Positions 8,003 to 63,409 of a stretch of 64,000 bases of DNA are shown here, piece by piece. This DNA is from Candidatus Shapirobacteria bacterium (GTDB lineage Bacteria; Patescibacteriota; Microgenomatia; UBA12405; BS750m-G30): positions 107,467 to 171,466 of the forward strand of contig JBDRHA010000011.1 of assembly GCA_043817235.1 (NCBI GenBank), in the 5' to 3' direction. The notes below the pieces were generated by a model that had not been told where the DNA came from, made no database searches, and saw nothing but the letters and a program-made list of their open reading frames with translations. The number at the start of each line of letters is the position of its first letter. The stretch's first letter is position 1. Both the position numbers and the translations under genes were made by a program.

Positions 8003-8003
8003 A

Positions 8004-8030
8004 TTAGCAAAAGATTAACACGACTGCTAA
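8004..8030 (-). promoter_or_regulatory. CIRCE-like inverted repeat (HrcA operator) overlapping the hrcA promoter
   Basis: TTAGCAAAA-N9-GACTGCTAA matches the TTAGCA-N15-TGCTAA frame of the CIRCE consensus TTAGCACTC-N9-GAGTGCTAA. A minus-strand TTGACA (-35) at 8035-8040 lies just upstream. Confidence 0.6.
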
Positions 8031-8036
8031 TTGCTG

Positions 8037-8330
8037 TCAAGGGGTAATTTTCATTAAAGCCCAGAAAAAAGAAGCAAAAAGAATAAATAGGATAATGCTT
8101 AGCTGTTTATACCAAATAAAAAGCCCTAAAGTTAAGGTTAAAGAAAGCCATAAAGAAAGTTTAAATCTTCCCCAAATTCCAAAAAATAAGAAAAAGAAAA
8201 ACAAGAAAAAGAAAAGAAAGAAAATTAAAATTTGCCACCAAAAATCAGGAGATATTTTAACAATCCAAAACACTAAGGAAATTAAAGAAAGCAAAGATAA
8301 AAATGAAAAAAGAATTTTTCTTTTGATCAC
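8037..8330 (-). CDS. hypothetical small hydrophobic protein (doubtful)
   Basis: 97-aa Phe/Leu-rich ORF lying on an A/G-rich low-complexity tract; may not be coding. Confidence 0.2.
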   Translation of the reverse strand: MIKRKILFSFLSLLSLISLVFWIVKISPDFWWQILIFFLFFFLFFFFLFFGIWGRFKLSLWLSLTLTLGLFIWYKQLSIILFILFASFFWALMKITP

Positions 8331-8375
8331 TGTTATTATTTAAGAAGAAAAAAAGAAGAAAAGCAAACTGCTCAA

Positions 8376-8430
8376 GGGAACCGGGGGCTTGTTTGTCAAA
8401 AATCGACAAAAACAAAGCCGCCCGGCTCCC
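8376..8430. repeat. 55-bp hairpin-forming repeat, copy 1 (identical to 9851-9905)
   Basis: GGGAACCGGGGGCTTGTTTGTCAAAAATCGACAAAAACAAAGCCGCCCGGCTCCC; internal imperfect palindrome GGCTTGTTTGTC...GACAAAAACAAAGCC; at the low-GC/high-GC boundary. Confidence 0.9.
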
Positions 8431-8453
8431 CTTGCACCTAAAAATGCTACAGC

Positions 8454-9638
8454 CTATTGACTATAGCATTTCTCCCAGGAATCCATGGCCCACATGGCGT
8501 CATCTCCGCCGCATGGTTTCCAGCCGTCTATCAGCTTCTCTGCATAGACATCCGCCATCGAGCGGGCCGCGGGATCAGCGGCAGGTGAGAACGGCGCTAA
8601 AGTAATCGCGCCTTCTGCCAAGCCATGATTCCACCTGAACCCTACGAAACCTCCCTCCAGAGTTTTCCGGACGGCCCAGGTGTATATGTCCGACCAATCG
8701 ATCACCACGCTGGTGAGAATGTGGTCGTTGGGCGCCACGCGCTCGGCCCAGTTGGAATCGTAGCCGATCACCCAGACATCGGTGTCCACCAGCGCCGTAC
8801 CGGCAGCCGTGCTGTCCTGGTGCACTGCCACCACTCTCGCCCCCTCTTCTTTGAGCGCCAGCGCCCCGGCGGTCTCGTCGCCTAAGTTCTCCCAATTGTT
8901 GATATACACAGTGGAAATGCTGACCGGCAGCCCTCCCCCCTTCTCAGCCCAAGTGTCGGCGAAGCAGGCGGCGCACGCCCCGTGGTTGGAGGCTACCTGA
9001 GGATTCTCCGCATAGGCGCCCAGCATGCCAAGCTCAGGCTCATCCACAATAGCCGCCGCGGCAGCGCAGGCCGCACAGAATCCTTCCCACGATTTCGGGT
9101 ACATGGACACCAGGTTCGTGGCCACCGGCCCGCGGATGCAAGCGAAATTCACGTCGGGGTGGCTTGGCGCCACGTTTTCCTGCAGATCTTGGCACCAGTT
9201 CTCGGCGGTGACAAAGACCAGCCTGGCGCCTTTGGAAATCATGTCCTCAGCCACACGTGAAGCTTCTGTGGCGCTAAAATCCGTAGTCGCCGTCCAGGAA
9301 AGGGTGTTGACTACCACCTTACCTGTGCCATCCACAACTCTAAAGCCTTCCCCGTCCTCTTCCACCTGCATACCCTGGGATGGATCGTAGACAGCTTCCA
9401 AGGCCTGCCGCAGACCCTCCCGGTGCGCGGCCGACCAAGGGATCTGAACCGGCGAGATGTAGATCATTCCGATAGTAGTCAGATCCACAGTCTCTGCTGC
9501 ATCCGTAGGTTGCGACTGCGGCTGGGCGGTTAGCTGCACTGGCGGCGCTACTAGCGGAGCCGTGCACGCGCTGAAGACGCAGGACAGGGTGAACAAGAAA
9601 AACGTTGCGGCAAGGGCCACCAGGTGAACGCGTTTCAT
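8454..9638 (-). CDS. BMP-family (PnrA-like) ABC-transporter substrate-binding lipoprotein, probable nucleoside binding
   Basis: High-GC gene. RBS AAAGGAG plus ATG at 9638, giving MKRVHLVALAATFFLFTLSC with a lipobox; BMP-family motifs. The ORF-track start at 9728 is probably too far upstream. Confidence 0.65.
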   Translation of the reverse strand: MKRVHLVALAATFFLFTLSCVFSACTAPLVAPPVQLTAQPQSQPTDAAETVDLTTIGMIYISPVQIPWSAAHREGLRQALEAVYDPSQGMQVEEDGEGFRVVDGTGKVVVNTLSWTATTDFSATEASRVAEDMISKGARLVFVTAENWCQDLQENVAPSHPDVNFACIRGPVATNLVSMYPKSWEGFCAACAAAAAIVDEPELGMLGAYAENPQVASNHGACAACFADTWAEKGGGLPVSISTVYINNWENLGDETAGALALKEEGARVVAVHQDSTAAGTALVDTDVWVIGYDSNWAERVAPNDHILTSVVIDWSDIYTWAVRKTLEGGFVGFRWNHGLAEGAITLAPFSPAADPAARSMADVYAEKLIDGWKPCGGDDAMWAMDSWEKCYSQ

Positions 9639-9850
9639 CTTGTGTTCTCCTTTTCTTTTTTTTTGAGTACTCGGGACAACAACGCCGGCTTGCCAAGCCT
9701 TTAGGCAATTCCTCCTTTTAAGGTGCATAAAAAAAGAAAGGTTTTTTAGGGAAATCGCAATTGACTTCCCCTTGCCTTTCTTTTAATTCCTCTGTTTTTG
9801 AGAAACAAAAGAAATCCTATTATTATATACTAAGACTCATTTTACTTCTC

Positions 9851-9905
9851 GGGAACCGGGGGCTTGTTTGTCAAAAATCGACAAAAACAAAGCCGCCCGG
9901 CTCCC
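9851..9905. repeat. 55-bp hairpin-forming repeat, copy 2
   Basis: Perfect 55/55 identity with 8376-8430; lies between the two BMP genes. Confidence 0.9.
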
Positions 9906-9929
9906 AAAAGCACCTTAATCTGAAGGCTA

Positions 9930-11023
9930 CTACGGAGCGCCCACCACCCCCTCTACGAACCAACTCATGGAAAGCATGTCAGCGTCGCTCATGCACTGGC
10001 CGGAAGCGATTGCTAGAGCACCGTCCTGGCTATTGATAGGACCGCAGAAGACGTCCCACTCGCCACTGAGGATGACCTGCTCGCGCTCTTCCACCAGGTC
10101 CGCCACATCGACCGGCACACGCTCGCTCAGATCAGCCAGGGCCACGATGCCATCATTCATGCTGCCCCAGTACTGGTGCGTCTCCCAACTTCCATCGAGC
10201 ACGGCCTGCACCTGCCGCACGTAGTAGGGACCCCAATTCCACATGGGGCTGGTCAACACCGTGTCGCCCACGAACTCACGCATATCCGAGTCGTAGCCGA
10301 TGCTCAAGGCCCCGCGGTCGGCGGCGGCCTTCTGGGGTTCGGTGGTGTCCTGATGTTGAGCGATGATGTCAGCGCCCACATCGAGCAGCCCTTCGGCGGC
10401 TTCCTTCTCCAGGACCGGGTCGAACCAGGTGTTGGTCCAGACCACGCGCACCTCGGCTTCGGGATTGGCCTCGCGCACACCCAGGGTGAAAGCGTTGATG
10501 CCGCGCACAACCTCAGGGATGGGGAAGGCGGCGACATAGCCAATGATGTTGGAATGGGTCATGCGGCCAGCCACCAGACCAGAGAGGTAGCGGGGCTGGT
10601 ACATACGGCAAAGTAAGTAGCGGCGTTGTCCAGCGTCTTGTAGCCGGAGCAGTGCATGAAGACCACGTTGGGGTACTCGGCGGCGACGTTGACCGTCGGG
10701 TCCATGAACCCAAACGAGGTGGTGAAAATGACGTCGTAGCCTCGTTGGGCGAAGTCGCGGATGACCCGTTCGGCATCCGGGCCTTCGGGCACGTTTTCGA
10801 TGTAGGTGGTTTCGACTTGATCGCCGAAGGTTGCTTCGACCTGCAGTCGACCTTGCTCGTGGGCCCAGGTCCAGCCGAGGTCACCGATAGGGGCGACGTA
10901 GACGAAGGCTACTCTGAGAACCTCCGCCTCAGGGGCAGGAGCCGCGGGCTGAGCCACTGGCGGCGCGCAACCAACTATCAACGCTAGAATCACGACAACT
11001 AGCAAAGCCAAATTCTTCTTCAT
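9930..11023 (-). pseudogene. BMP-family substrate-binding lipoprotein gene split by a frameshift near 10600-10660
   Basis: N-terminal piece 10559-11023 (MKKNLALLVVVILALIVGC lipobox, RBS CTCCTT at 11032) and C-terminal piece 9930-10604 are in different frames. The concatenation reads as one BMP protein (...KTLDNAATYFA / RMYQPRYLSGLVAGRM...). Confidence 0.55.
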
Positions 11024-11095
11024 CTTTCTTCTCCTTAAGAATTATTGAGATGAGACAGAGGTGCGATGTTCTGCACCTCTGTCTTTGCGAAACTC

Positions 11096-13033
11096 CTACC
11101 GCACGACCTCCCTGCATTCCCCGGTGGTCACGTTGACGAATCCGGAGGGGCAGTCCTCGAAGGGAGCCACGAGCACCCACTTCCAAGGCTGGCAGGTCAG
11201 GGTTTGGAACCGTGCCGATTCGGCACTTTGGAGCGCGGCTGAACTATATGCCGGGCTCTCCACTGGCAGGTAGGAGAGCCATTCCAGTCCGGCGGCGGAC
11301 TCCCAGAAAGCCTCGAAATCCTCGGCTACCTCATGCGCGGGTCGCGACGACATGAGCCCGCCGATCTCCAACTGGACATAGTCCACTACCTCGCCACCCG
11401 AGACCAGGACATAGCCGCCGTTGATGGAGGCCAGGTAGTTGACGGCCTGAGCCATGGCCTCGTCGCTGGTGCCCATCACCTGGACGTTGTGATTATCGTG
11501 CGCCTCGCTCAGGGCGAAGGCCGTATCCGGCGTGGCCGGACCGACGTCGCGCCAGAACATGCAGGCCACCGGATCTGCTAGCGCATTGTAGCGGTCGACG
11601 ATGCAGAACTTGCTGACCTTGTTGGCGACGTCGCGCTGGACCGCTCCGTCTACCACCGGCAGCTCGACTTCTGGGTAGGTGGGAGCGAAGTAGAACTGGC
11701 TTAAGACGGCGGCCATGGCCGTATTGCCTTCTGCCGCCACCACGAAATCGTCTGCCGTCACCTCGCGGCCGATGTTGATGGTGTCTTGCGCCCATTCTGG
11801 CCAGTCGACGGTCGGAATCTCGTAGACCAACTGGCCATCCACGCCGACGAGCTTGCCGGAGGCCCAGACTCTGTTGATATCGACGGTCTCCGGGTTGCGC
11901 AAGAGCACGACATGGGCATACCGCCCGGGGGCGATGGAGCCCACCAGGTGCTCGAGATGCCAGTGACGTGCGGCCGTATAGGAGGCCGAGGCGTAGGCTG
12001 CCTCTACAGGGACGCCCAGCTGGATCGCCGTCCTGGTGTTGTAGTCCATGGTCCCCAGCTCCAGAGCCTCGTCCACGCTTCGGTCGTCCGTGGTCCAGGA
12101 CATGTTGGACCAGTCCTTCAGCCCCATCTTGATAAGGTAAGGAATGACCTTTCCCATGGAGCCTGTCCTGATTTGAATGAAGACCCCGTGGCGAAGCTTG
12201 TCCAAGACTTCGGCGCCTTCGCGAATCTCGTGATCGGATGACAGCCCGGCGGCTGCGAAGGCATTGATCTCATCGTAGGTGAACATGCGGCTGCCGTGGC
12301 CCTCGATCACCCCGTCTGCATCCCAGGTGGCTTGTAAGGCCTGCCACATGCGTTCGTATCCGGGCATCTCTGGGTTCCACACCGATGGCCAGTCCATGAC
12401 CTCGCCCAGTCCAATCACCCAGGGGTGGCTGTTCATGAGCTCCGTGACCGCATCGTAGTCGTAGTAACCCCCGGTGAACTCGAACGGCGTCGGCGGGATG
12501 GCCGAGCCTAGCTGTGGGAAAATGGTTAGTGGGCTGCCATTCTGGTGGGGAAGCAGCCACAATTCGGCGTTGTGGTCGCCATCCACGTTGCCAAACTCGT
12601 GCGATGCTTCTGCGATCCAGGTTGTCCCCTGCGGCAGAACCACTTCGGCTTCGCGGTCCGGCGAAAGATGGCTGGACTCGATGTGCTTGTGGGGTTCGCC
12701 GAACCCCGGCACCGCGTAGAGGCCGTAGGCGTCCACCGTTTCCGCGGCCGTTCCCGACCAGGCGCCGCGGGGACCCACCCAGGCAATCCGCTCGCCTTTG
12801 ATGACGATGTCCTGGCTGGGCATCCAGGTTAGGGTGTGGACGTCGAGGACCGTTGCACCGGAAATGATCAGGTCTGCTTCGGCCCTGCCCAGAGCGACCA
12901 GCACCAGCTCCTGGCGGACCTTCACTTCATCCGATGGGAAGTCTTGCCGGTCGAAGTCGGCTGCGGCAGGCAATGCCCCTGTCACAAGCAGTGCTGCCAA
13001 CAGCATTACACTTAGCAATGCTTTGTGTTTCAC
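11096..13033 (-). CDS. adenine deaminase family amidohydrolase with an N-terminal Sec signal peptide
   Basis: ISGATVLDVHT and PGFGEPHKHIESS and GLGEVMDWP match adenine deaminase motifs. The likely start is GTG at 13031-13033 preceded by AAGGAG, giving MKHKALLSVMLLAALLVTGALPAAADF. Confidence 0.6.
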   Translation of the reverse strand: MKHKALLSVMLLAALLVTGALPAAADFDRQDFPSDEVKVRQELVLVALGRAEADLIISGATVLDVHTLTWMPSQDIVIKGERIAWVGPRGAWSGTAAETVDAYGLYAVPGFGEPHKHIESSHLSPDREAEVVLPQGTTWIAEASHEFGNVDGDHNAELWLLPHQNGSPLTIFPQLGSAIPPTPFEFTGGYYDYDAVTELMNSHPWVIGLGEVMDWPSVWNPEMPGYERMWQALQATWDADGVIEGHGSRMFTYDEINAFAAAGLSSDHEIREGAEVLDKLRHGVFIQIRTGSMGKVIPYLIKMGLKDWSNMSWTTDDRSVDEALELGTMDYNTRTAIQLGVPVEAAYASASYTAARHWHLEHLVGSIAPGRYAHVVLLRNPETVDINRVWASGKLVGVDGQLVYEIPTVDWPEWAQDTINIGREVTADDFVVAAEGNTAMAAVLSQFYFAPTYPEVELPVVDGAVQRDVANKVSKFCIVDRYNALADPVACMFWRDVGPATPDTAFALSEAHDNHNVQVMGTSDEAMAQAVNYLASINGGYVLVSGGEVVDYVQLEIGGLMSSRPAHEVAEDFEAFWESAAGLEWLSYLPVESPAYSSAALQSAESARFQTLTCQPWKWVLVAPFEDCPSGFVNVTTGECREVVR

Positions 13034-13500
13034 GTTAATCTCCTTGTTGGTTGGTATATGGTGAATCGCGGTGTTGGCCAAGAACGCTTGGCGTTAACGC
13101 TGTCCTCTGCCTTCATCTGGTTGACTGCCAGATTAAGACAGTTCTTGCTTTTTTAAAAGCAAGACGAATATAGGAACAGCAGGAAGAAAAAACCACTAAA
13201 AATATTAATCTAATAATCTTTTTTTCCCGCTGTTCCTTTAGCCTTCAAATTGTTAAGGTGCTTTAAAAAAGTTCAGAGAAAAGCGCTTGAAAAAATCGCT
13301 TTTGATTTTTTTAGCTTTTTTCTCCAGTTTCCCTTTTTGGAAACAAAAAAACCCGGGATATATTTATCCCAGGTTCAGATTTTTTCCAAAACACAAAAAC
13401 GGTATTTGGTATGTGGCGCCCTGTTTCATTTATTTTATCTCCGGCAGGCCTTTGAGATACTATATTGTTTAAGCAAATATAGCTTTTTTCTAAAAGCTCG

Positions 13501-14061
13501 TCAAGACTCAGATTTGAAAATCGGCAAAGAAACTAGATATTCAAACGGCTCAAGTTCTTCAAATAATTTTTCTCCTTGTTTGACAATCGCCCCAAAAACG
13601 ACTATATCTGCTTCACACTTTTCCATTAATTTTTTCATCATTCGCATGGTCACACCGGTAGAAATAACATCGTCCACGATGGCTACTTTTTTTCCTTTGA
13701 TTAAATCCCGATCTAAGCCGTCAATTACTAGAGGCTTAACGTGTTTAGGAAAATGCGGCAAGGGTTTTAAAACCAAAGGATTAATCATATGCGGCTTGCG
13801 GCTTTTGCGGCAAATAACATAATGCTTATGGTTAAAAATGTTAGCCAGCTGATCAATTAAAGGTACTACTTTTACTTCCGGCCCCACTAGATAATCAAAA
13901 TCATATTTTTTTAGTTTCTTATAAAGCGCTTTGGCCGTCGCTCTAATCAGCAAAACATCTCCGGAAATGTTCAAACTGGCAATTTTAGTGTTCTTGCCAA
14001 TTCCGATTAAGGGCAATTTTCTTTGTAAACCGCAGATTGCAAGATCATAAAAATCTCTCAC
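13501..14061 (-). CDS. type I phosphoribosyltransferase (purine PRTase-like)
   Basis: PRPP-binding motif KVAIVDDVISTGVTM; 186 aa; low-GC native gene right beside the high-GC island. Confidence 0.6.
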   Translation of the reverse strand: MRDFYDLAICGLQRKLPLIGIGKNTKIASLNISGDVLLIRATAKALYKKLKKYDFDYLVGPEVKVVPLIDQLANIFNHKHYVICRKSRKPHMINPLVLKPLPHFPKHVKPLVIDGLDRDLIKGKKVAIVDDVISTGVTMRMMKKLMEKCEADIVVFGAIVKQGEKLFEELEPFEYLVSLPIFKSES

Positions 14062-14098
14062 CTAAAAGTATAACTTATTTTCTATAGTATAATAAAGA

Positions 14099-15139: not shown

Positions 15140-18100
15140 ATGACAATTAAGTTAAACCCTACCCAGAAAGAGGCGGTCAAACATGAAAAAGGCCCGCTTT
15201 TGATTATTGCCGGAGCCGGAACTGGAAAAACAACAGTAATTACCGAGCGAATCAAATGGCTTATTACCAAAAAAAACATTCTTCCTTCTCAAATCCTAGC
15301 TCTTACTTTTACTAATAAAGCCGCTTTGGAAATGGAAGAGAGGGTGGACTTAGCTTTACCCCTGGGCTATTCTAATATGTGGATTTCTACTTTTCATTCT
15401 TTTGGCGATAGAGTGTTGCGAGATGAGGCAGTGCATATCGGTCTTGATCCGAATTTTAAGCTCCTCTCCCAAGCCGAATCTCTGCTTTTTTTGCGAAAAA
15501 ATTTATTTAAGCTAAAACTAAATTACTTTAGGCCGGCCACTAACCCGACCAAGTTTTTAGACGCCTTACTTACCCATTTTGCCCGGCTGGCAGATGAATA
15601 CATCAGCCCTCAAGAATATTTAAATTTTGCCCAAAAACAAAAAGATAAAGCCGACACCAAGGAAGAGAAACTGGAAGCAAAAAAAAGCTTGGAGCTGGCT
15701 AATTGTTTTGCCCAATGCCAAATCTTGAAAGAAAAAAACGGATTTATGGACTTTAGTGACCTGATCAGCAACACCTTAGCTTTATTTAATAAGAGGCCAA
15801 ATATTTTGCGAAATTATCAGGAAAAATTTAAGCATGTTTTGGTGGACGAATTTCAAGATACAAATATTGCCCAAAACGAACTAATCAGTTTGCTTACCCT
15901 AAAGAAAGGAAATATTACAGTGGTAGCTGACGATGACCAATGTTTACCTGCCAATACTCTCATCGAAACCCCACAGGGACGAAAAAATATCAAAAATATT
16001 AAGACAGGAGATATGGTAATAACAGGCGTTGGTAAAGGCTATGTTTCTGCTAAAAAAGTAACTAAAAAATTTACTTCTAAAAAAACAGCAGACTTTCTGT
16101 CAGTAACAATGGAATGTGGAAAAAACCTAACATTAACAGCAAATCATCTAGTCTTCTGCTATACTCCACGTTTTTATACTAACAAAAAATGGTATTACAT
16201 CTATCTAATGGAAAATAAAGATTTGGGCTGGCGATTAGGAGTAACTCATGATCTTGTCCAAAGGCTTAAGTTGGAAAGAAGCGCGGATAGGATTATTGCG
16301 ATTAAAGCCTGTAAAACTAATCAGGAAGCTCATTATTGGGAATCTTACTATTCATTAAAATATAAAATACCTACCGTTTGCTTTAAAGAAAGAGGAAATC
16401 TTATCGCCGGCGAATGGCTTAAAAAGCTTTATTCGGCAATTGACAGCAAAAAGGGAGCAATTAATTTAGCAAATGATCTTCAAATTGAACTTAGCAGACA
16501 TCATTATTGCCTAGATGCAGTGAATCGAGGAAGCAAGAAAAGAACGAAAGTAAATCTCTATTTATGCCTGAGAAAACATCGAATTAAGAAACATTTAAAA
16601 AATAATATTCTCATCAATCCCAAGATAGTTCATCAAGTCGGAATCACCACCTCAAATAAAAGAGTCATTAATATTGTCAGATCTTTAGGACTAGATATGA
16701 CGAAAGGCAAAAAGAACACCAAAGCCTTTAGAAAGCAGTTTAGCTCCTTCATTGAAGCCGGAAAATTTGCGCGATATCTTGCAGACAGCACTAAGGCAAT
16801 TTTGGACATTAAAACTGCAATCGCAACTAAAAACGGTATTTCTAAACAAGCAAGAGTTATGCCTGCAAGCAATCTCGTCGAGGGCATATATTTACCCATA
16901 TTAAAAAATAATAATATTGTTTACGACGAAATCGTCGCAATCTCTAGAAAAAGAAAAACACAAACTGTTTATGATTTAGAGATAGAAGACAGCCATAATT
17001 TCATCGCCAATCAAATCGTTGTTCATAATTCTATTTATAAGTGGCGCGGAGCAGCAATTTCCAATGTGCTTCAATTTAAAAAGAATTTTCCAAAAACTAA
17101 GATAATTACCCTTAATCAAAACTATCGCTCTACTCAGGAAATTTTAGATCGCGCTTATCAGCTCATCCAGAACAATAACCCGGACCGGCTGGAAGTTAAA
17201 GAAAGAATCAATAAAAAACTCAAAGCAGTTCGCCCAATTAAAGGAAAACCAATAGAACTTATTTTTACTCCCAGAGCAGAGCAGGAGGCAGAAGAGGTGG
17301 CTATAAGAATTAAAAAACTAGTTAGCCGGAAATATGAGCCAAGAGATGTTGCTATTTTAGTCAGAGCCAACAGCCAAGCCGAATCTTTTACTCGCGCCCT
17401 TTCCCGTAACAATATTCCCTATCAATTTTTAGGCCCAGGCCAGCTTTTTCGCCAGCCGGAAATTAAAAACTTGATTTCTTATCTTAAGATTCTTACTAAT
17501 CCGGAAGATAATGTAGCCCTTTTTCGCTTAAGCAATTTGCCTGTTTTTAAAATCTGGGCACGCGATTTAGCTTTTAGCAATAGCTTTGCTAAAAAGAATA
17601 ACCTATCCCTTTTTGAAGCCTTTGAAAAAATTAGTCAAAAAAAGAAAAAAAATGAGGAATTAAATCTCCCTTCATTTGCCAAGGTTAGCCAGAACGGAAT
17701 AAAAAAATTGGTCAAAATAGTTTATCGCCATTGGAAACTTGTTTCCAAAGAGTCGGGCGGCCAGCTGCTTTACTATTTTTTAGAACAAACCAAGCTCTTA
17801 GAACAGTATTTAAAACCGGAAACAGAAAATCAACAGCTGGCCGCCCTAAATATTGCCAAATTTTTCGATAAAATAAAAAGCTTTGAAGCTCAAAATAAGG
17901 AAACCCTAGCAGGGGATTTATTAGACTGGATTACCCTAAGAATGGAAATGGGAGAAAGCCCGCAGGCCTCAGAAATTGATTGGACAAACTATAATGCTGT
18001 AAATATTATCACTATTCACTCGGCCAAAGGCCTTGAGTTTCCGATTGTCTTTCTGGTTAACCTGGTCAACCGCCGCTTTCCCACTGATAAAAGAAGGGAA

Positions 18101-19147
18101 GCTATTCCCATCCCCCAGCCACTAATCAAGGAAATCCTACCTAAGGGAGATTACCACCTACAAGAAGAGCGCCGGCTTTTTTATGTCGGGCTTACCCGAG
18201 CCAAAGACCAAGTCTTTTTAACTGCTGCCAAAGTGTATCCAGAAAGAAAGCTGGAAAAGAAACTTTCAATTTTTGTGAACGAAACCCTAGGCGATCAAAA
18301 AGAAAGGTCAATATTAAACGAGAAAAGCTCATCCTTAGCCGAATGGGAAAAAGAAAAGCAAGTGGAAAAAGCACCTGTTCTAAATCCACCCGTGAGCTTT
18401 CTTTCCTATTCTCAAATTGATGCTTTTGACATTTGTCCCCGGCAATATCAATATAAATACGCCCTAAGAATAACTACTCCCCCTTCGGCTACCCAAACCT
18501 TTGGCAGTATCGTCCACCAAACCTTAAAAGCTTTCTGCCAAAAACAAATTGCCGCAAACCACAAGCTTAAGCAGGAAGAATTATTAAAATTACTTTCCCA
18601 AAGCTGGATTTCCCGGGGATTTAAAAGCAAACTGGAAGAAAAAAAAGCCAAGCAAAATGCGGCTAAGATGTTAAAAAATTACTATCAAAAGGGCTTTAAT
18701 TATCAAAACGTAGACCAGGTTATGGCCCTAGAACAGTCCTTTAATTTTAAAATCACACCCGGTTTAAAAATTGGGGGGATTATTGACCGAGTAGACAATT
18801 TGAAAAACAATCAAATAGAAATTATTGATTATAAAACAGGAGCCAGAATACCCAAGCAAAAAGACGTTGACGGAAACGACCAGCTTACTCTTTATGCTTT
18901 AGCGGCCAGCTCGCTTAAAGATCTAAGCTTTTATCGGCCCTTAAACAAAATTATTCTTTCTCTATATTTTTTGGATCAAGGGAAAAAACTAAGCAGTAAG
19001 CGCACACCCAGCCAAATTGGTAAATTTAAGGAAAAAATAATTAACCTGGCTAAAGAACTGGAAAAAACCAACTTCCCTTCCCAGCCGAACACGCCTTTTC
19101 CTTGTGATTTCTGTGAATACAAGCTTCTTTGCGACGCCTGGCACTAA
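15140..19147 (+). CDS. UvrD-family helicase fused to a C-terminal Cas4/AddB-like PD-(D/E)xK FeS nuclease; intein-interrupted
   Basis: Walker A AGAGTGKTT, motif II VLVDEFQDTN, motif III split as VVADDDQ/.../SIYKWRGA. C-terminus has DICPRQY...IDYKTG...CDFCEYKLLC (Cas4-like nuclease with a 4-Cys cluster). Confidence 0.8.
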   Translation: MTIKLNPTQKEAVKHEKGPLLIIAGAGTGKTTVITERIKWLITKKNILPSQILALTFTNKAALEMEERVDLALPLGYSNMWISTFHSFGDRVLRDEAVHIGLDPNFKLLSQAESLLFLRKNLFKLKLNYFRPATNPTKFLDALLTHFARLADEYISPQEYLNFAQKQKDKADTKEEKLEAKKSLELANCFAQCQILKEKNGFMDFSDLISNTLALFNKRPNILRNYQEKFKHVLVDEFQDTNIAQNELISLLTLKKGNITVVADDDQCLPANTLIETPQGRKNIKNIKTGDMVITGVGKGYVSAKKVTKKFTSKKTADFLSVTMECGKNLTLTANHLVFCYTPRFYTNKKWYYIYLMENKDLGWRLGVTHDLVQRLKLERSADRIIAIKACKTNQEAHYWESYYSLKYKIPTVCFKERGNLIAGEWLKKLYSAIDSKKGAINLANDLQIELSRHHYCLDAVNRGSKKRTKVNLYLCLRKHRIKKHLKNNILINPKIVHQVGITTSNKRVINIVRSLGLDMTKGKKNTKAFRKQFSSFIEAGKFARYLADSTKAILDIKTAIATKNGISKQARVMPASNLVEGIYLPILKNNNIVYDEIVAISRKRKTQTVYDLEIEDSHNFIANQIVVHNSIYKWRGAAISNVLQFKKNFPKTKIITLNQNYRSTQEILDRAYQLIQNNNPDRLEVKERINKKLKAVRPIKGKPIELIFTPRAEQEAEEVAIRIKKLVSRKYEPRDVAILVRANSQAESFTRALSRNNIPYQFLGPGQLFRQPEIKNLISYLKILTNPEDNVALFRLSNLPVFKIWARDLAFSNSFAKKNNLSLFEAFEKISQKKKKNEELNLPSFAKVSQNGIKKLVKIVYRHWKLVSKESGGQLLYYFLEQTKLLEQYLKPETENQQLAALNIAKFFDKIKSFEAQNKETLAGDLLDWITLRMEMGESPQASEIDWTNYNAVNIITIHSAKGLEFPIVFLVNLVNRRFPTDKRREAIPIPQPLIKEILPKGDYHLQEERRLFYVGLTRAKDQVFLTAAKVYPERKLEKKLSIFVNETLGDQKERSILNEKSSSLAEWEKEKQVEKAPVLNPPVSFLSYSQIDAFDICPRQYQYKYALRITTPPSATQTFGSIVHQTLKAFCQKQIAANHKLKQEELLKLLSQSWISRGFKSKLEEKKAKQNAAKMLKNYYQKGFNYQNVDQVMALEQSFNFKITPGLKIGGIIDRVDNLKNNQIEIIDYKTGARIPKQKDVDGNDQLTLYALAASSLKDLSFYRPLNKIILSLYFLDQGKKLSSKRTPSQIGKFKEKIINLAKELEKTNFPSQPNTPFPCDFCEYKLLCDAWH
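15941..17029 (+). mobile_element. intein (363 aa) inserted in helicase motif III
   Basis: Starts with Cys (CLPANTLIETPQGRKNIKNIKTGDMV, block A) right after DDDQ. Ends ...VYDLEIEDSHNFIANQIVVHN followed by Ser (block G, HN+S). The host motif SIYKWRGA resumes in frame. Confidence 0.75.
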
Positions 19148-21804: not shown

Positions 21805-23730
21805 TCACTCTGTATCTAAATCCCAGCTATCATCAAAAACTTCCGTCCCTTCAAAGCAAAGCAAATTCTCTGATATATCCAGTAAAAAGCGAGAAGGTTC
21901 ATTAAAACTCATTTGGCCAAAATAAAGCCGCTTGCTGGCAAAACTCAAAAAAAGCCGCTTTCTGGCCCGGGTTAAGCCAACATAACAAAGCCGGCGCTCT
22001 TCTTCTAATCTTTCTTCTTCTTCTAAGGAACGGGCATGAGGGAGCAGGCCTTCCTCTAAGCCTACAATAAACACAGCCTCAAACTCTAATCCTTTACTGG
22101 CATGCAAGGTCATTAAACGAATGGCTTGGCTGGCCCAATCTTTTTTTTCTTTTTCCTGGACAAAATATTCTTGCTGAACTAAAGTCACATTTTCTAAAAA
22201 TTCACCTATGTCAGGAAAAGACTCGGCTACAGACAAGAGTTCATTAATATTTTCTAATCTCCGGCTGTCTTCCTCCTCGTCCGGATCATACTTTTCTAAA
22301 TAAGTACTCTTTTCTAAAAGGGCGCTAAGCAGACTTTTGCTCTCCCATGTCTCTTTTCTTTTTTCTTTAATAAAATCTTTAACCTTATTCGTTCTTCTTA
22401 TGCCCATATTTTTTACTAATCTTTCCAAAGAAACATCATCTTTAGGGTTATAAAAAAACCGAAGCAAAGATAAGGCGTCTTTTACTTCTTGCCTTTCATA
22501 AAAGCGCACCCCACCAATTAGTATATAGGGCAAGCCCCGCCTAATTAAAACCTCTTCAATTACCCGCGATTGAGCATTAGTTCGATACAAAATAGCAATT
22601 TTCGTCGGGTCTGTACCTTTAAAATCCACCAGGGTCTTAATTTTATCTGCTACCCAAGCCGCCTCACCGCCTTCGGAAAGTGCCTGATAAACTACAGCTT
22701 TTTCTCCACCTTTATTCTCTGTTCTCAATCTTAAAACCGGGTGCTTGCTATTTTGCCGAATAACTTCAAAAGCTATGTCCAAAATATTTTGAGTAGAACG
22801 ATAATTAACCTCCAAATTAACGGTCTTGATTTTTGGAAAATCAGATTTTAAATTAAGCAAATTCCGGTAATCAGCTCCTCGCCAAGAATAAATCGCTTGA
22901 GAGGCATCGCCAACTACGGTTAGATTTTGATATTTTTGAGCCAGCAGCTTGGTAAGCAGATACTGAGGACGATTGGTATCCTGATACTCATCTACCAATA
23001 TATACTTATACCTTTCCTGAAATATTTTTAATACATTTTCTTTTTCTTCCAAAAGACGCACTGCTTGACAAAGTAAATCTGTAAAATCTAAAGCATTCAT
23101 TTCCTGCAGCTTTTTTTCATATTCAAGATATACTTTAGCCACTACCTTTCGATAAGGATCATAAGCCTTTTTGCCAAAACTTTTGGCGTCCAGAAGTTCG
23201 TTTTTTGCTTGCTCGATAATCGCTTTTAAAACCACTGGCTTAAAACGTTTATCAGATAAATCAAATTTCTTTAAAATATTTTTAAGTAAAGATTGTGAAT
23301 CTCCCTCGTCAAAAATCACAAAATTGGGAGATAAATTGATTGCTTTGCCAAAAGAACGAAGCGAATATCCACCAAAAGAGTGGAAGGTTCCGGCAAATAA
23401 ATTCGCCTTCTTATTTTCGCCCAAAAGACTCAAAAGCCTTTGCTTCATTTCTCCGGCCGCCTTATTGGTAAAAGTTAAGAGCAAGAGCTCATTTATTTTT
23501 GCTTTTCCGGCGGCCACCAGCCAAGCCGCCCGATGAGTTAAAACCCGGGTCTTGCCGCTGCCAGCACCGGCCAAAACCAAAAGCGGCCCCCTGTCATGCG
23601 TCACCGCTTGCTTTTGAGCCGTATTTAAATCTTTGAATAAATCTTCCACTCTATTATTGTAACAGTAAATTAGGTTTTTAATTGGCAGTTTATTGATACT
23701 ATGTTTCGATGTATCGATACATCGAAACAT
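21805..23730 (-). CDS. UvrD/PcrA-family DNA helicase (start uncertain)
   Basis: LVLAGAGSGKTRVLTHR, VDEYQDTN, VVGDASQAIYSWRGA, no intein. The ORF-track N-terminus MFRCIDTSKHS is a translation of the palindrome at 23701-23730, so the real start is probably downstream (non-ATG). Confidence 0.75.
   Translation of the reverse strand: MFRCIDTSKHSINKLPIKNLIYCYNNRVEDLFKDLNTAQKQAVTHDRGPLLVLAGAGSGKTRVLTHRAAWLVAAGKAKINELLLLTFTNKAAGEMKQRLLSLLGENKKANLFAGTFHSFGGYSLRSFGKAINLSPNFVIFDEGDSQSLLKNILKKFDLSDKRFKPVVLKAIIEQAKNELLDAKSFGKKAYDPYRKVVAKVYLEYEKKLQEMNALDFTDLLCQAVRLLEEKENVLKIFQERYKYILVDEYQDTNRPQYLLTKLLAQKYQNLTVVGDASQAIYSWRGADYRNLLNLKSDFPKIKTVNLEVNYRSTQNILDIAFEVIRQNSKHPVLRLRTENKGGEKAVVYQALSEGGEAAWVADKIKTLVDFKGTDPTKIAILYRTNAQSRVIEEVLIRRGLPYILIGGVRFYERQEVKDALSLLRFFYNPKDDVSLERLVKNMGIRRTNKVKDFIKEKRKETWESKSLLSALLEKSTYLEKYDPDEEEDSRRLENINELLSVAESFPDIGEFLENVTLVQQEYFVQEKEKKDWASQAIRLMTLHASKGLEFEAVFIVGLEEGLLPHARSLEEEERLEEERRLCYVGLTRARKRLFLSFASKRLYFGQMSFNEPSRFLLDISENLLCFEGTEVFDDSWDLDTE
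23703..23728. promoter_or_regulatory. perfect 26-bp palindrome GTTTCGATGTATCGATACATCGAAAC, copy 1 (putative operator)
   Basis: 40 bp upstream of the YerC/TrpR-like gene; identical copies at 24228-24253 and 62677-62702. Confidence 0.6.
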
Positions 23731-23767: not shown

Positions 23768-24217
23768 TTGATGACTCAAATTTCCAAAAAATTCGTAAAG
23801 CCAGAAACTCTTGAAAAAACTTTTGACCTTCTGTTGGCTTCTTTACTAAAAAGCGGGGGCAAAGCAGATACCAAAGAATTTCTTGAGGACCTCTTAACAC
23901 CGACAGAAAAAGTCATGATTGCCAAAAGAATTGCAATCGCTTATCTTCTCCTCCAGGAAGTTGATCATAGAACTATTTCTGAAATGCTTAAAGTAAGCAC
24001 GTCTACAATAAATCGGATATCGTTTGTTCTTAATAGGCAAGGAGCTGGTTTCAAAAGAGTTCTGAAGAGATTACTAAGAGAAAAGAAAATTAATAATATT
24101 CTTGAAGAAGTCGGCGAACTGCTGTTTAATTCATTACCGCCTAAATACGGCGATAAAAGAGCCTGGGCCAAAGAAAAATTTGTCAGAAAAATGACCCGCC
24201 AATCACCCTTGAGCTAA
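23768..24217 (+). CDS. YerC/YecD-family TrpR-like DNA-binding protein
   Basis: LTPTEKVMIAKRIAIAYLL...ISEMLKVSTSTINRIS matches the TrpR-related YerC family HTH. Confidence 0.7.
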   Translation: MMTQISKKFVKPETLEKTFDLLLASLLKSGGKADTKEFLEDLLTPTEKVMIAKRIAIAYLLLQEVDHRTISEMLKVSTSTINRISFVLNRQGAGFKRVLKRLLREKKINNILEEVGELLFNSLPPKYGDKRAWAKEKFVRKMTRQSPLS

Positions 24218-24227
24218 AAATTCATCT

Positions 24228-24253
24228 GTTTCGATGTATCGATACATCGAAAC
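24228..24253. promoter_or_regulatory. 26-bp palindrome copy 2
   Basis: Identical to 23703-23728; 10 bp past the YerC-like stop, in the convergent gap with the DUF2298 gene. Confidence 0.6.
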
Positions 24254-55791: not shown

Positions 55792-56360
55792 TGAATAGCC
55801 TAATTTCAAGAAAACTAAAAATAATCATAATTGATGCCCCTAGCTTAACAAAAAAACAGATAAAAGATAAAAAAGGGCTGCAAGCGCTTTGTTTTGGCAG
55901 CCTTGACCCTCAAGAAATAGAAGAAGATTTTTGCCATCCAGAAACTGCCCATGTTTTAGCTTACCTTAATAAACAACTGTCAGGTTGGGCAGGAATTCAC
56001 CTTGAAAACACAATTTACAACAACAAGAAAATTAAACTAGGCGGCTTTGGTATTTGCACCCATCCAAAACATCGGCAAAAAGGAATCGCCAGCAAAGTAT
56101 CTCAAAAAGCAATGGGGTATTTAAAACAACAAAAGTGTGATTTGGCATTTTTATCGATTGATCCTTCCAAAAAAGGTCCAAAAGAACTTCACCAAAAAAC
56201 CGGATTTGTTAGTCTGCCCAATAATTTTTCTTGGATAAGTAGATCAGGAAAAAGAAAACTAGGAAAGGAAGGAATGATTGCTCCCCTTTCTTCTCCAAAA
56301 ATATTTAAGCAAATACTCAATGGAAAAGAAATTCTCCATATAGCCAAAGGATATTGGTAG
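55791..56360 (+). CDS. GNAT-family N-acetyltransferase
   Basis: ...GGFGICTHPKHRQKGIASKV... GNAT motif A-like; start codon overlaps the MFS stop. Confidence 0.55.
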   Translation: MNSLISRKLKIIIIDAPSLTKKQIKDKKGLQALCFGSLDPQEIEEDFCHPETAHVLAYLNKQLSGWAGIHLENTIYNNKKIKLGGFGICTHPKHRQKGIASKVSQKAMGYLKQQKCDLAFLSIDPSKKGPKELHQKTGFVSLPNNFSWISRSGKRKLGKEGMIAPLSSPKIFKQILNGKEILHIAKGYW

Positions 56361-56369
56361 TTAACCCTA

Positions 56370-56560
56370 CTCGCCCAAGGGGCGAGAAAATCGCGCGCCC
56401 TAAAAAAGCGAGGGCCAAGGGCCCGAGCTTAACCGTTGTTCGGGGAGGTTCGGATTTGTTGGTAAAGATCCACCACTGAAGAAATCACAAGGGGATCAGG
56501 AAAATGCTGGGCCGCGCCACCCTTCGTGACTTTCAATTAATACAAAATTAAGTTTCTTTT
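56370..56560. repeat. modular intergenic element, copy A (modules 1+2+3)
   Basis: CTCGCCCAAGGGGCGAG hairpin, AAAATCGCGCGCC, ...AAAAAAGCGAGGGCC..., TTAACCGTTGTTCGGGGAGGTTCGGATTTGTTGGTAAAGATCCACCA, then GGCCGCGCC...TTCAATTAATACAA..TTAAGTTTC. Confidence 0.8.
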
Positions 56561-57789: not shown

Positions 57790-57817
57790 GTCTTTTTGTT
57801 TTTAATAAAAACCAAAA

Positions 57818-58040
57818 CTCGCCCAAAGGGCGAGAAAATCGCGCGCTTCTTTCTTAAAAAAAGCGAGGGCCAAAGGGAGTTTAAAACTCTTTTTTCAATA
57901 CAGCTTAACCGTTGTTCGGGGAGGTTCGGATTTGTTGGTAAAGATCCACCATCCACAAAATGGATTTGGGATTTGGCCTGATTTTGGCCGCGCCCCCGCT
58001 CGCAAGCGATCTTCAATTAATACAAGGCTAAGTTTCCTTC
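57818..58040. repeat. modular intergenic element, copy B (modules 1+2+3, with an extra GAGTTTAAAACTC hairpin)
   Basis: CTCGCCCAAAGGGCGAGAAAATCGCGCGC...; its module 2 (57905-57950) is 45/45 identical to copy A; module 3 is followed by an extended -10 TGATAAAAT. Confidence 0.8.
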
Positions 58041-59185: not shown

Positions 59186-59218
59186 TGATGAATATATTTT
59201 ACCCTAATTTTGCGAAGC

Positions 59219-59364
59219 AAAAAAATCGCGCGCCTTCTTCCTAAAAAAGCGAGGGCTAGGGGCCCGAGCTTAATCACTGTTCGGGGAGGTTCGGATTTGT
59301 TGGTAAAGATCCACCATTTCCAATATGCTCTCTGACTCGGGCGGATTTTGGGCCGCACCCGCAA
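59219..59364. repeat. modular intergenic element, copy C (modules 1+2, partial 3)
   Basis: AAAATCGCGCGCC...AAAAAAGCGAGGGCTAGGGGCCCGAGCTTAATCACTGTTCGGGGAGGTTCGGATTTGTTGGTAAAGATCCACCA...GGGCCGCACCCGCAA. Confidence 0.8.
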
Positions 59365-62166: not shown

Positions 62167-62219
62167 TTCTGTATCTCTTTATTGTATATACTGTGTTATA
62201 CCTTGTCAAGGGTAATTTC

Positions 62220-62326
62220 AAAATCGCGCGCTTTCCTTTAAAAAAAGCGAGGGCTAAAGGCCTGACCCGCCTGCCGGCAGGCGGGGCTTCCATCGTTAGG
62301 CGGGATTGAGCGAGGTTCGGATTTTT
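62220..62326. repeat. modular intergenic element, copy D (module 1, degenerate module 2, with a 20-bp GC palindrome)
   Basis: AAAATCGCGCGCTTTCCTTTAAAAAAAGCGAGGGCTAAAGGCC..., CCCGCCTGCCGGCAGGCGGG (62266-62285), ...GAGGTTCGGATTTTT. Confidence 0.7.
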
Positions 62327-62676: not shown

Positions 62677-62702
62677 TGTTTCGATGTATCGATACATCGA
62701 AA
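62677..62702. promoter_or_regulatory. 26-bp palindrome copy 3
   Basis: GTTTCGATGTATCGATACATCGAAAC is identical to the copies flanking the YerC-like gene; ~75 bp upstream of the 62780 ORF. Confidence 0.6.
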
Positions 62703-62779
62703 CATAAAAGGGCAATATGTCTTGGCATATTACATTTTCTCCTTGACACCAGAGAGAATAAATATTATCCTAGTTTCAC

Positions 62780-63409
62780 ATGGATACTGAATCTGTAATC
62801 CAAACCCCTGCTCCCCAATCTGCCCGCGAAGCATCTGAGAATAAGGGCCGGGAGCGGCGTGAACGTTTTTCCAAAAGACTTTCCGAAACAAGAGTCGGCC
62901 AAACAATCAATAAGTTTAAAAACTCTGTTAGCACGGGAATTGATGTTTTATTTAGATCTCCGGAGATAATGTCAAATGCGTATGATAAGCTAACTAGCAA
63001 ATTGGAAAAACCTAAAAACAATGCGATTGCCAAAGTGACTAATTTAACTAGAAGAGCTGCGGTTTGGGGTTTAACAAGTATTGCTGAACCAATAGAAAAC
63101 AGAATCAGGTCCATATACGAGATCCCTGCTGGTATTCAAGATTGGAAAGCTGATAGGGTTGCCGGTAGAGCAGAAATGCTAGAGCAAGAGGCATATAAAA
63201 AACAGGAACGCATAACTCAACTTCGTAATTTATTAGCGATGATGGAAAAAGAGGCAACAGGTAGTTACTCTGAGGCTTTATCTGCCGCTTCTACAGCTCA
63301 GGCTGAATCCGAAAAGCTACGCGATCAAGCTGACGGAAGAAGATATGATGCCAAAAATAAATTTAGCAAAGCAAGAAATGCTGTGGCCGCTATTAATGCA
63401 ACAGCTTAA
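62780..63409 (+). CDS. hypothetical coiled-coil protein
   Basis: 209 aa, charged alpha-helical sequence; preceded by palindrome copy 3. Confidence 0.35.
   Translation: MDTESVIQTPAPQSAREASENKGRERRERFSKRLSETRVGQTINKFKNSVSTGIDVLFRSPEIMSNAYDKLTSKLEKPKNNAIAKVTNLTRRAAVWGLTSIAEPIENRIRSIYEIPAGIQDWKADRVAGRAEMLEQEAYKKQERITQLRNLLAMMEKEATGSYSEALSAASTAQAESEKLRDQADGRRYDAKNKFSKARNAVAAINATA

Follow-up and report, generated by a model that had tools for sequence, protein, structure and literature searches.

Why should two paralogous genes in a bacterial purine-salvage island end in the same hairpin, identical over 55 bp? The question is raised by a 64,000-nt stretch of DNA (hereafter the window), which is part of a 336,659-bp contig that encodes proteins MFH1602041–MFH1602044 and comes from a metagenome-assembled genome of Candidatus Shapirobacteria (candidate phyla radiation [CPR]/Patescibacteria) with a background GC content of approximately 38%. 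The 55-mer GGGAACCGGGGGCTTGTTTGTCAAAAATCGACAAAAACAAAGCCGCCCGGCTCCC, here called R, occurs exactly twice in the window, on the same strand, with 55/55 identical positions and 0 mismatches, while the chance expectation for such a repeat is 0 (100 dinucleotide shuffles). Each copy lies behind one of two genes for BMP/PnrA-like lipoproteins, BMP1 and BMP2 (Table 1). A first-pass annotation of the window had described the repeat as a hairpin, which the exact match, the shuffles and the fold confirm, and had proposed three roles for it: a transcription terminator, a site of recombination (att) derived from tandem duplication of the BMP cassette, or an element resembling a miniature inverted-repeat transposable element (MITE). 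We favor, with a probability of about 0.5, the reading that R is a gene-end RNA stem-loop, either terminator-like or resembling a repetitive extragenic palindromic (REP) element, which acts as a 3'-end barrier or partial terminator, is used twice and was recently copied within the locus. The position, orientation, stability and sharp boundaries of R, the absence of other copies from the searched sequence and the presence of analogous hairpins in orthologous loci are established; from these we infer how it affects transcription and mRNA decay and by what mechanism it was copied.

Analysis of the fold indicated that R is an imperfect palindrome with a long stem. The minus strand, which is the mRNA-sense strand, forms 24 base pairs with a folding energy of −34.7 kcal/mol, while the plus strand forms 21 pairs with −29.1 kcal/mol, the mRNA strand folding better because of two G-U pairs. 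In the minus-strand fold, the foot of the stem pairs GGGAGCCGGG with CCCGGUUCCC, including one G-U pair, and is followed by a bulged C; above the foot lie GGCUU/AAGCC, a bulged U, GUU/AAC, a bulged UU, UGUCGA/UUGACA and a 3-nt loop. Comparison with shuffled sequences in a 95-nt context gave z-scores of −5.8 and −5.65 for the two copies on the minus strand and of −3.6 and −4.05 on the plus strand. When the whole window was folded on both strands in sliding segments of 64 nt, the two copies of R were its most stable hairpins, at −38 kcal/mol. The identity between the copies spans precisely the stem, from its first to its last base pair, and the flanks (CTCAA-R-CTTGC and TTCTC-R-AAAAG) are unalignable. 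The flanking bases, which differ between the copies, lengthen the helix by 2 and 6 extra pairs.

The relevant genes around R are all located on the minus strand and are arranged, in the order of transcription, as PRTase (phosphoribosyltransferase), ADE (secreted adenine-deaminase-like amidohydrolase), BMP2, R copy 2, BMP1, R copy 1, a small membrane-protein gene and hrcA-grpE-dnaK. Each copy thus lies 3' of a BMP gene, 23 and 24 nt past the respective stop codons, and copy 1 coincides with a compositional boundary, where homology to the closest relatives stops at 8349 and GC-rich coding sequence begins at 8454; both placements had been described correctly in the first-pass annotation. The two stop-to-R spacers share a similar design, with T(T/A)AGGTGC sitting in the stem-loop of each, 3–4 nt before R, and about half of their bases match (~55% similarity). 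R lies in sense orientation 23–24 nt past the stop codons, its mRNA strand folds better, its helix is extended by the flanks, and analogous hairpins in another lineage (locus L001, described below) have U-tracts behind them; together, these observations suggest that R functions at the level of the transcript.

The identity of the two copies requires its own explanation. BMP1 and BMP2 both belong to PF02608, their proteins are 22–32% identical in amino-acid sequence, and nucleotide alignment of the 3' regions of both genes revealed identity confined to the 55 nt of R. Since the proteins are this diverged, the match stops at the foot of the stem and nothing outside R aligns, a tandem duplication of a BMP-plus-repeat cassette is ruled out, and with it the duplication part of the recombination-site proposal. 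Given the diverged spacers and the old paralogous genes, the 55/55 identity must reflect a recent event restricted to the hairpin, for which gene conversion, recombination between the R copies and hairpin-specific mobility are possible origins. The second copy could also have been created by the assembly, if a mis-resolved graph node had caused a single real hairpin to appear on both sides of the BMP1 segment. The length of R equals the largest default k of metaSPAdes, which is 55, the genome is represented by a single assembly, and a 1-nt frameshift in BMP2 could likewise be an error. We regard such an artefact as very improbable, as R ends where its stem ends, which is a biological boundary, each copy has a coherent context (stop codon, similar spacer, R, then U-rich or leader sequence), short reads of more than 55 nt span such a node, and five independent assemblies of the other lineage show GC-rich genes among locus-specific repeated hairpins.

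Comparison with known systems places R nearest to structures at transcript ends. Like intrinsic terminators, R is a sense-oriented stem-loop with a GC-rich foot; it is placed at the ends of transcription units, approximately 24 nt past the stop codon, and the analogous hairpins of L001 carry U-tracts. Unlike them, it lacks the 7–9-nt U-tract directly after the stem, and its stem of approximately 24 bp with three bulges is far longer, including in comparison with the host's own terminator at 13349–13376. Since the stem is not directly followed by a U-tract, R by itself does not qualify as a canonical intrinsic terminator. Among the three roles of the first-pass annotation, the terminator is nevertheless the best supported, provided that the term is taken loosely.

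Several observations weigh against the preferred reading of R as a gene-end stem-loop. A U-tract of ~7–9 nt directly 3' of R is absent from both copies, and a consensus terminator scan misses the full hairpin; copy 1 is followed by UU GAGCAG, with U-rich sequence only after that, and copy 2 by GAGAAGUAAAAUG. Established work, for example PMC3993855, indicates that intrinsic termination generally requires U-tracts. The host does use canonical terminators, such as the one at 13349–13376, and R far exceeds the other gene-end hairpins of the window in length and stability. The copies are identical, so R itself yields no covariation support, and the strand asymmetry depends on two wobble pairs only. 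Moreover, a structural role needs no 55/55 identity, and the contrast with the ~55%-similar spacers calls for a separate copying event.

A gene-end stem-loop of this kind could work as follows. As BMP2 and BMP1 are transcribed from the minus strand, the small stem-loop past the stop codon would form, and the 55-nt R would then fold into its stem of approximately 24 bp with a GC-rich foot. In the manner of REP elements and terminator stems, the folded R would pause or partly terminate the polymerase and block 3'-to-5' exonucleases, setting and stabilizing the 3' end of each island transcript and insulating the imported genes from each other, from the downstream small membrane-protein gene and from hrcA-grpE-dnaK. 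Full termination would probably be finished downstream by U-rich sequence. Behind copy 1, the U-rich tract before the small membrane-protein gene may complete it; behind copy 2, the candidate is a second hairpin with U7 (9729–9784), formed by a composite A/U-rich hairpin of the BMP1 leader (9732–9784) that runs into a U7 tract (9729–9735). Directly upstream of hrcA (8003–8045, minus strand), a TTGACA box is followed by the inverted repeat TTAGCAGTC-N9-TTTTGCTAA at 8003–8040, which we take, from the established consensus, to be like the controlling inverted repeat of chaperone expression (CIRCE). Since hrcA has this box and CIRCE-like element of its own, a stop at R copy 1 is compatible with chaperone expression. 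The hairpin alone would have been copied recently in the locus, through either gene conversion across these 55 bp or recombination during re-ordering of single-gene units.

R can also be compared with the REP elements and bacterial interspersed mosaic elements (BIMEs) of enterobacteria, which stabilize mRNA 3' ends, for example in malE-malF. These are, like R, repeated imperfect palindromes in 3' untranslated or intercistronic positions without a U-tract, and R likewise plausibly shields the upstream mRNA from exonucleases. REPs are present in hundreds of dispersed copies, carry a conserved 5' GTAG and are linked to the REP-associated tyrosine transposase (RAYT). For R, by contrast, the 64 kb yielded just two copies, both local, with a stem that lacks GTAG, and no gene for a RAYT. 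No further copy with up to 3 mismatches was found in the window, and neither blastn-short nor nhmmer found one in the window or in 85 related (Microgenomates) loci totalling 1.39 Mb. Exact scans with interior-only and clamp-only patterns of R gave no match in the GTDB one-genome-per-species set, the JGI metagenomes or IMG/VR, and blastn gave none in plasmid and phage collections. Of the source genome, which is absent from the public collections scanned, these searches covered the 64-kb window, with ~270 kb of its contig and the remainder of the bin outside their scope. A generic dispersed REP element thus appears unlikely, no further copy having been found in the window, the 85 loci or these collections.

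The same searches bear on whether R is a small selfish hairpin element (REP/RAYT, MITE-like, or derived from palindrome-associated transposable elements [PATE] or IS200-IS605) that was independently inserted behind both BMP genes. A sharp identity edge at the foot of the hairpin and unrelated flanks are expected when a discrete unit is inserted, the T(T/A)AGGTGC before both copies could serve as a target, and the presence of a Y1 transposase with repeated hairpins beside a BMP1 homologue in another locus, L087, indicates that such systems occur near such genes. We consider this explanation unlikely, however, as the 64 kb hold two copies only, at one locus and in one orientation, and none was found in the 1.39 Mb of related loci or the collections scanned. 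No target-site duplication was detected around R, and no GTAG stands directly 5' of the stem, where one copy has CAAG and the other UUUU. The window encodes no integrase, transposase or other recombinase, and none of its open reading frames (ORFs) matches the Y1 (RAYT) transposase family PF01797. When R was compared with IS200/IS605 and PATE arrangements, two same-strand hairpins were seen to bracket one gene; the window encodes no TnpA, and further copies were not found. The suggestion of a MITE-like element therefore gained no support from target-site duplications or from further copies in any of the sequence searched. In L087 itself (2068–2930), a Y1 (IS200-like) transposase gene, with two copies of the hairpin GTCAACCCGACGGGTTGAC each side, adjoins the BMP1 homologue in a REPtron-like arrangement.

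The bracketing of one gene by two direct repeats resembles a recombination cassette. In this explanation, R is a DNA recombination site that bounds a single-gene cassette, either as an attC-like site without an integrase or as 55 bp of homology by which a circular unit of leader, BMP1 and R became integrated and could be lost again. The two direct copies of R bracket exactly one gene with its leader, and the order of the three imported genes (ADE, BMP1 and BMP2) varies by lineage, with BMP1 inverted in L001 and in a further locus, L086, so the genes appear to move as single units. In comparison with attC sites and clusters of attC sites lacking integron integrases (CALIN), R is an imperfect palindrome of similar length (attC, 57–141 bp), lies 3' of single ORFs as a direct repeat and has all its extra bases on one arm. 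The attC core consensus is RYYYAAC for R'' and GTTRRRY for R', and the ends of R do not fit it (minus strand, GGGAGCC...GGTTCCC; plus strand, GGGAACC...GGCTCCC); core sites are thus absent. Neither intI nor any other recombinase is encoded in the 64-kb window, BMP1 has a long leader of its own (212 nt), unlike promoterless cassettes, and the R copies bracket only BMP1 and do not bound the whole island. A recombination site is accordingly also improbable in our view, and the att proposal of the first-pass annotation found no support.

Comparison with related loci revealed the genomic setting of R. Two Shapirobacteria-type relatives, L007 (RmuC 88% identical) and L006 (84%), are collinear with the window on both sides, with homology up to window position 8349 and again from ~14076–14083, and neither carries the GC-rich segment. 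Their corresponding slots contain guaB-like, purA and purB genes in L007 (4903–9779) and genes for a nudix protein, purA and a flavin adenine dinucleotide (FAD) protein in L006 (6355–9977). As these collinear relatives carry other purine genes at this position, the segment 8350–14075 is a replacement in a variable purine-metabolism slot between the small membrane-protein gene and rmuC. In the window, only the three imported coding sequences are GC-rich, while every spacer and leader has 36–44% GC; the GC content at third codon positions (GC3) is 0.70–0.78 in the imported coding sequences and 0.36–0.38 in host genes. We regard the GC-rich island as horizontally acquired.

The same three GC-rich genes are found beside a PRTase gene in another Patescibacteria lineage, which is represented by five contigs from five samples (L001–L005; three from GenBank and two from assemblies of sequencing runs). 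L001 and the window are homologous in coding sequences only, and leaders and 3' hairpins are lineage-specific; the aligned ADE block (blastn; Table 1) runs beyond the ADE stop codon. The PRTase proteins of the window and L001 are only 45% identical, in comparison with 87% for ADE. The gene order in L001 differs from that in the window, and L086, from a third lineage, shows yet another. In L001–L005, a different hairpin of ~50 nt is present in three copies at gene ends in the locus and nowhere else in 19 kb; two of the three copies in L001 are followed by UUGCUUUUU-type tracts, and one base pair is altered on both sides with pairing kept. In L086, the three genes end in hairpins with a common GCTCATTTGCAT-like loop motif and different stems. 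R shows no similarity to the L001 gene-end hairpins, either by eye or with an nhmmer profile. The hairpin families at the gene ends of L001 and L086 show that repeated gene-end hairpins, lineage-specific and locus-restricted, are a recurrent property of this gene set, with sequences that are unrelated between lineages. More distant adenine-deaminase homologues (L089 and L090) were set aside, as they lie in unrelated purine-catabolism contexts.

A second case in the window, outside the island, is the hairpin ACTCGCCCAAGGGGCGAG, which follows two unrelated genes in near-identical form (56369 and 57817) and indicates that re-used gene-end modules recur in this genome. It belongs to a local intergenic repeat family of four copies, 68–94% alike (56350–56480, 57798–57956, 59195–59320 and 62195–62320), with the motifs AAAATCGCGCGC and AAAAAAGCGAGGGC.

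The recurrence of gene-end hairpins also bears on whether R is a specific recognition element, such as an RNase III site, the site of an RNA-binding protein or an operator, that co-regulates purine-salvage genes. A stem of ~24 bp suffices in length for RNase III, and R reaches this length. Phage T7-type intercistronic RNase III hairpins also have a long bulged stem and, as R could, may leave a protective 3' stub upstream; the likeness is one of shape only. The gene-end hairpins of a locus are alike within each lineage, and in L086 the loop is kept where the stems differ. A second motif, GCACCTTAA, is confined to intergenic DNA of the island and pairs across the BMP2-BMP1 spacer in a read-through RNA. 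A recognition element is nonetheless distinctly unlikely, as no protein partner could be identified, the window's deaminase gene has no R, and the hairpin families are wholly different between lineages though the genes are ~80% identical. Moreover, R has no match in Rfam 15 at gathering thresholds, and permissive E-values gave only a chance-level match to a small nucleolar RNA.

Analysis of the spacers and leaders revealed further repeated structures. In the window, the 9-mer TTAAGGTGC/GCACCTTAA occurs three times exactly (9718–9726 in the BMP1 leader, 9910–9918 and 13253–13261), each time in intergenic DNA of the island, and once with one mismatch, at 8434–8442; the 1.32 Mb of other loci contain only 5 copies. 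It belongs to a longer quasi-palindromic motif, GCACCTTAA-N5-12-G[GC]CTA. The copies behind BMP2 and in the BMP1 leader pair with each other in a read-through RNA, closing a domain that contains R (z-score −5.6). The ADE leader contains a near-perfect hairpin of 64 nt (13173–13236, minus strand, −33 kcal/mol), for which Rfam gave only chance-level matches to microRNA precursor models and which shows no similarity to R (P = 0.25). No Rfam family or riboswitch matched the leaders. In two other lineages, the deaminase and BMP2 leaders are duplicated within the genome with 82–93% identity (L001, 11311–11389/12824–12902 and 11510–11568/13000–13058; L086, 5617–5744/7015–7152), and the long leader hairpin of L086, which has no Rfam match, shows compensatory changes between its two copies. 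These duplicated leaders may represent an undescribed cis-regulatory RNA for purine salvage. Our search of the literature on CPR terminators or this island found nothing specific.

With regard to the imported genes themselves, BMP1 encodes a lipoprotein signal peptide and has a good ribosome-binding site, and its closest non-self homologue shares 74% protein identity. The BMP2 frame shifts relative to its L001 orthologue (tblastn), with TTTGGCCGCATG at 10559–10610 in place of TTTGCCGTATG; the 1-nt deletion would make it either a pseudogene or a sequencing error.

Table 1. Positions of the R copies, the island genes and the associated spacers, leaders and L001 alignments in the 64-kb window.
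Feature	Position	Strand	Description
Hairpin R copy 1	8376–8430	−	23 nt past BMP1 stop codon (8454–8456); left edge of GC-rich island
Hairpin R copy 2	9851–9905	−	24 nt past BMP2 stop codon (9930–9932); upstream of BMP1 leader
U-rich tract, 45 nt	8331–8375	−	24% GC; between R copy 1 and start of small membrane-protein gene; stem not directly abutted
BMP1-stop-to-R spacer, 23 nt	8431–8453	−	Small stem-loop with TTTAGGTGC (8434–8442)
BMP1, BMP/PnrA-like lipoprotein gene	8454–9638	−	Intact; 60% GC; PF02608; between both R copies
BMP1 leader, AT-rich, 212 nt	9639–9850	−	36% GC
BMP2-stop-to-R spacer, 24 nt	9906–9929	−	Small stem-loop with TTAAGGTGC (9910–9918)
BMP2, BMP/PnrA-like lipoprotein gene	9930–11023	−	61% GC; 1-nt deletion near 10606; two overlapping ORFs, both matching PF02608
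12-bp hairpin unlike R	11053–11084	−	Directly after ADE; conserved with L001
ADE, secreted adenine-deaminase-like amidohydrolase	11096–13030	−	62% GC; Pfam PF13382/PF01979; 87% amino-acid identity to L001 homologue
GCACCTTAA...GGCTA motif copy	13232–13265	−	In deaminase gene leader
PRTase (phosphoribosyltransferase)	13501–14061	−	37% GC; canonical terminator at 13349–13376; then 318-nt AT-rich leader
BMP1 aligned to L001	8454–9476		78% nucleotide identity
BMP2 aligned to L001	9938–10912		83% nucleotide identity
ADE aligned to L001	11061–12937		79% nucleotide identity

Elsewhere in the window, a perfect palindrome of 27–30 nt, TGTTTCGATGTATCGATACATCGAAACA, probably an operator, brackets a Trp-repressor-like gene (23768–24217) at 23700–23729 and 24227–24253 and occurs again at 62677–62706, where an ORF at 62780 lies 74 nt downstream of it. 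A 1335-aa AddA/UvrD-like helicase-nuclease (15140–19147) carries an intein, with Intein_splicing and Hint domains at residues ~263–630.

R is real but fairly ordinary, and it looks most like a feature of a known kind, a re-used transcript-end stem-loop. As such, it matters mostly for annotation: within the imported island of an uncultured CPR bacterium, it marks where two transcription units end, and it shows that the two BMP genes did not arise by a recent duplication. The wider pattern is more interesting. Three GC-rich purine-salvage genes with ~80% nucleotide identity are common to distant Patescibacteria, and each lineage re-packs them with its own AT-rich leaders, its own repeated gene-end hairpins and a different order, which could show how genome-reduced symbionts domesticate foreign genes. 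A highly speculative extension is that CPR bacteria handle acquired purine-salvage genes as single-gene cassettes, each made of a lineage-specific leader, a coding sequence and a gene-end hairpin. In such cassettes, R and GCACCTTAA would serve as a DNA or single-stranded DNA joint for insertion, re-ordering, inversion and loss, by an enzyme encoded elsewhere or by hairpin-guided recombination, an integron-like arrangement without a recognizable integron. If the hairpins are indeed recombination joints, they would represent a new cassette system.

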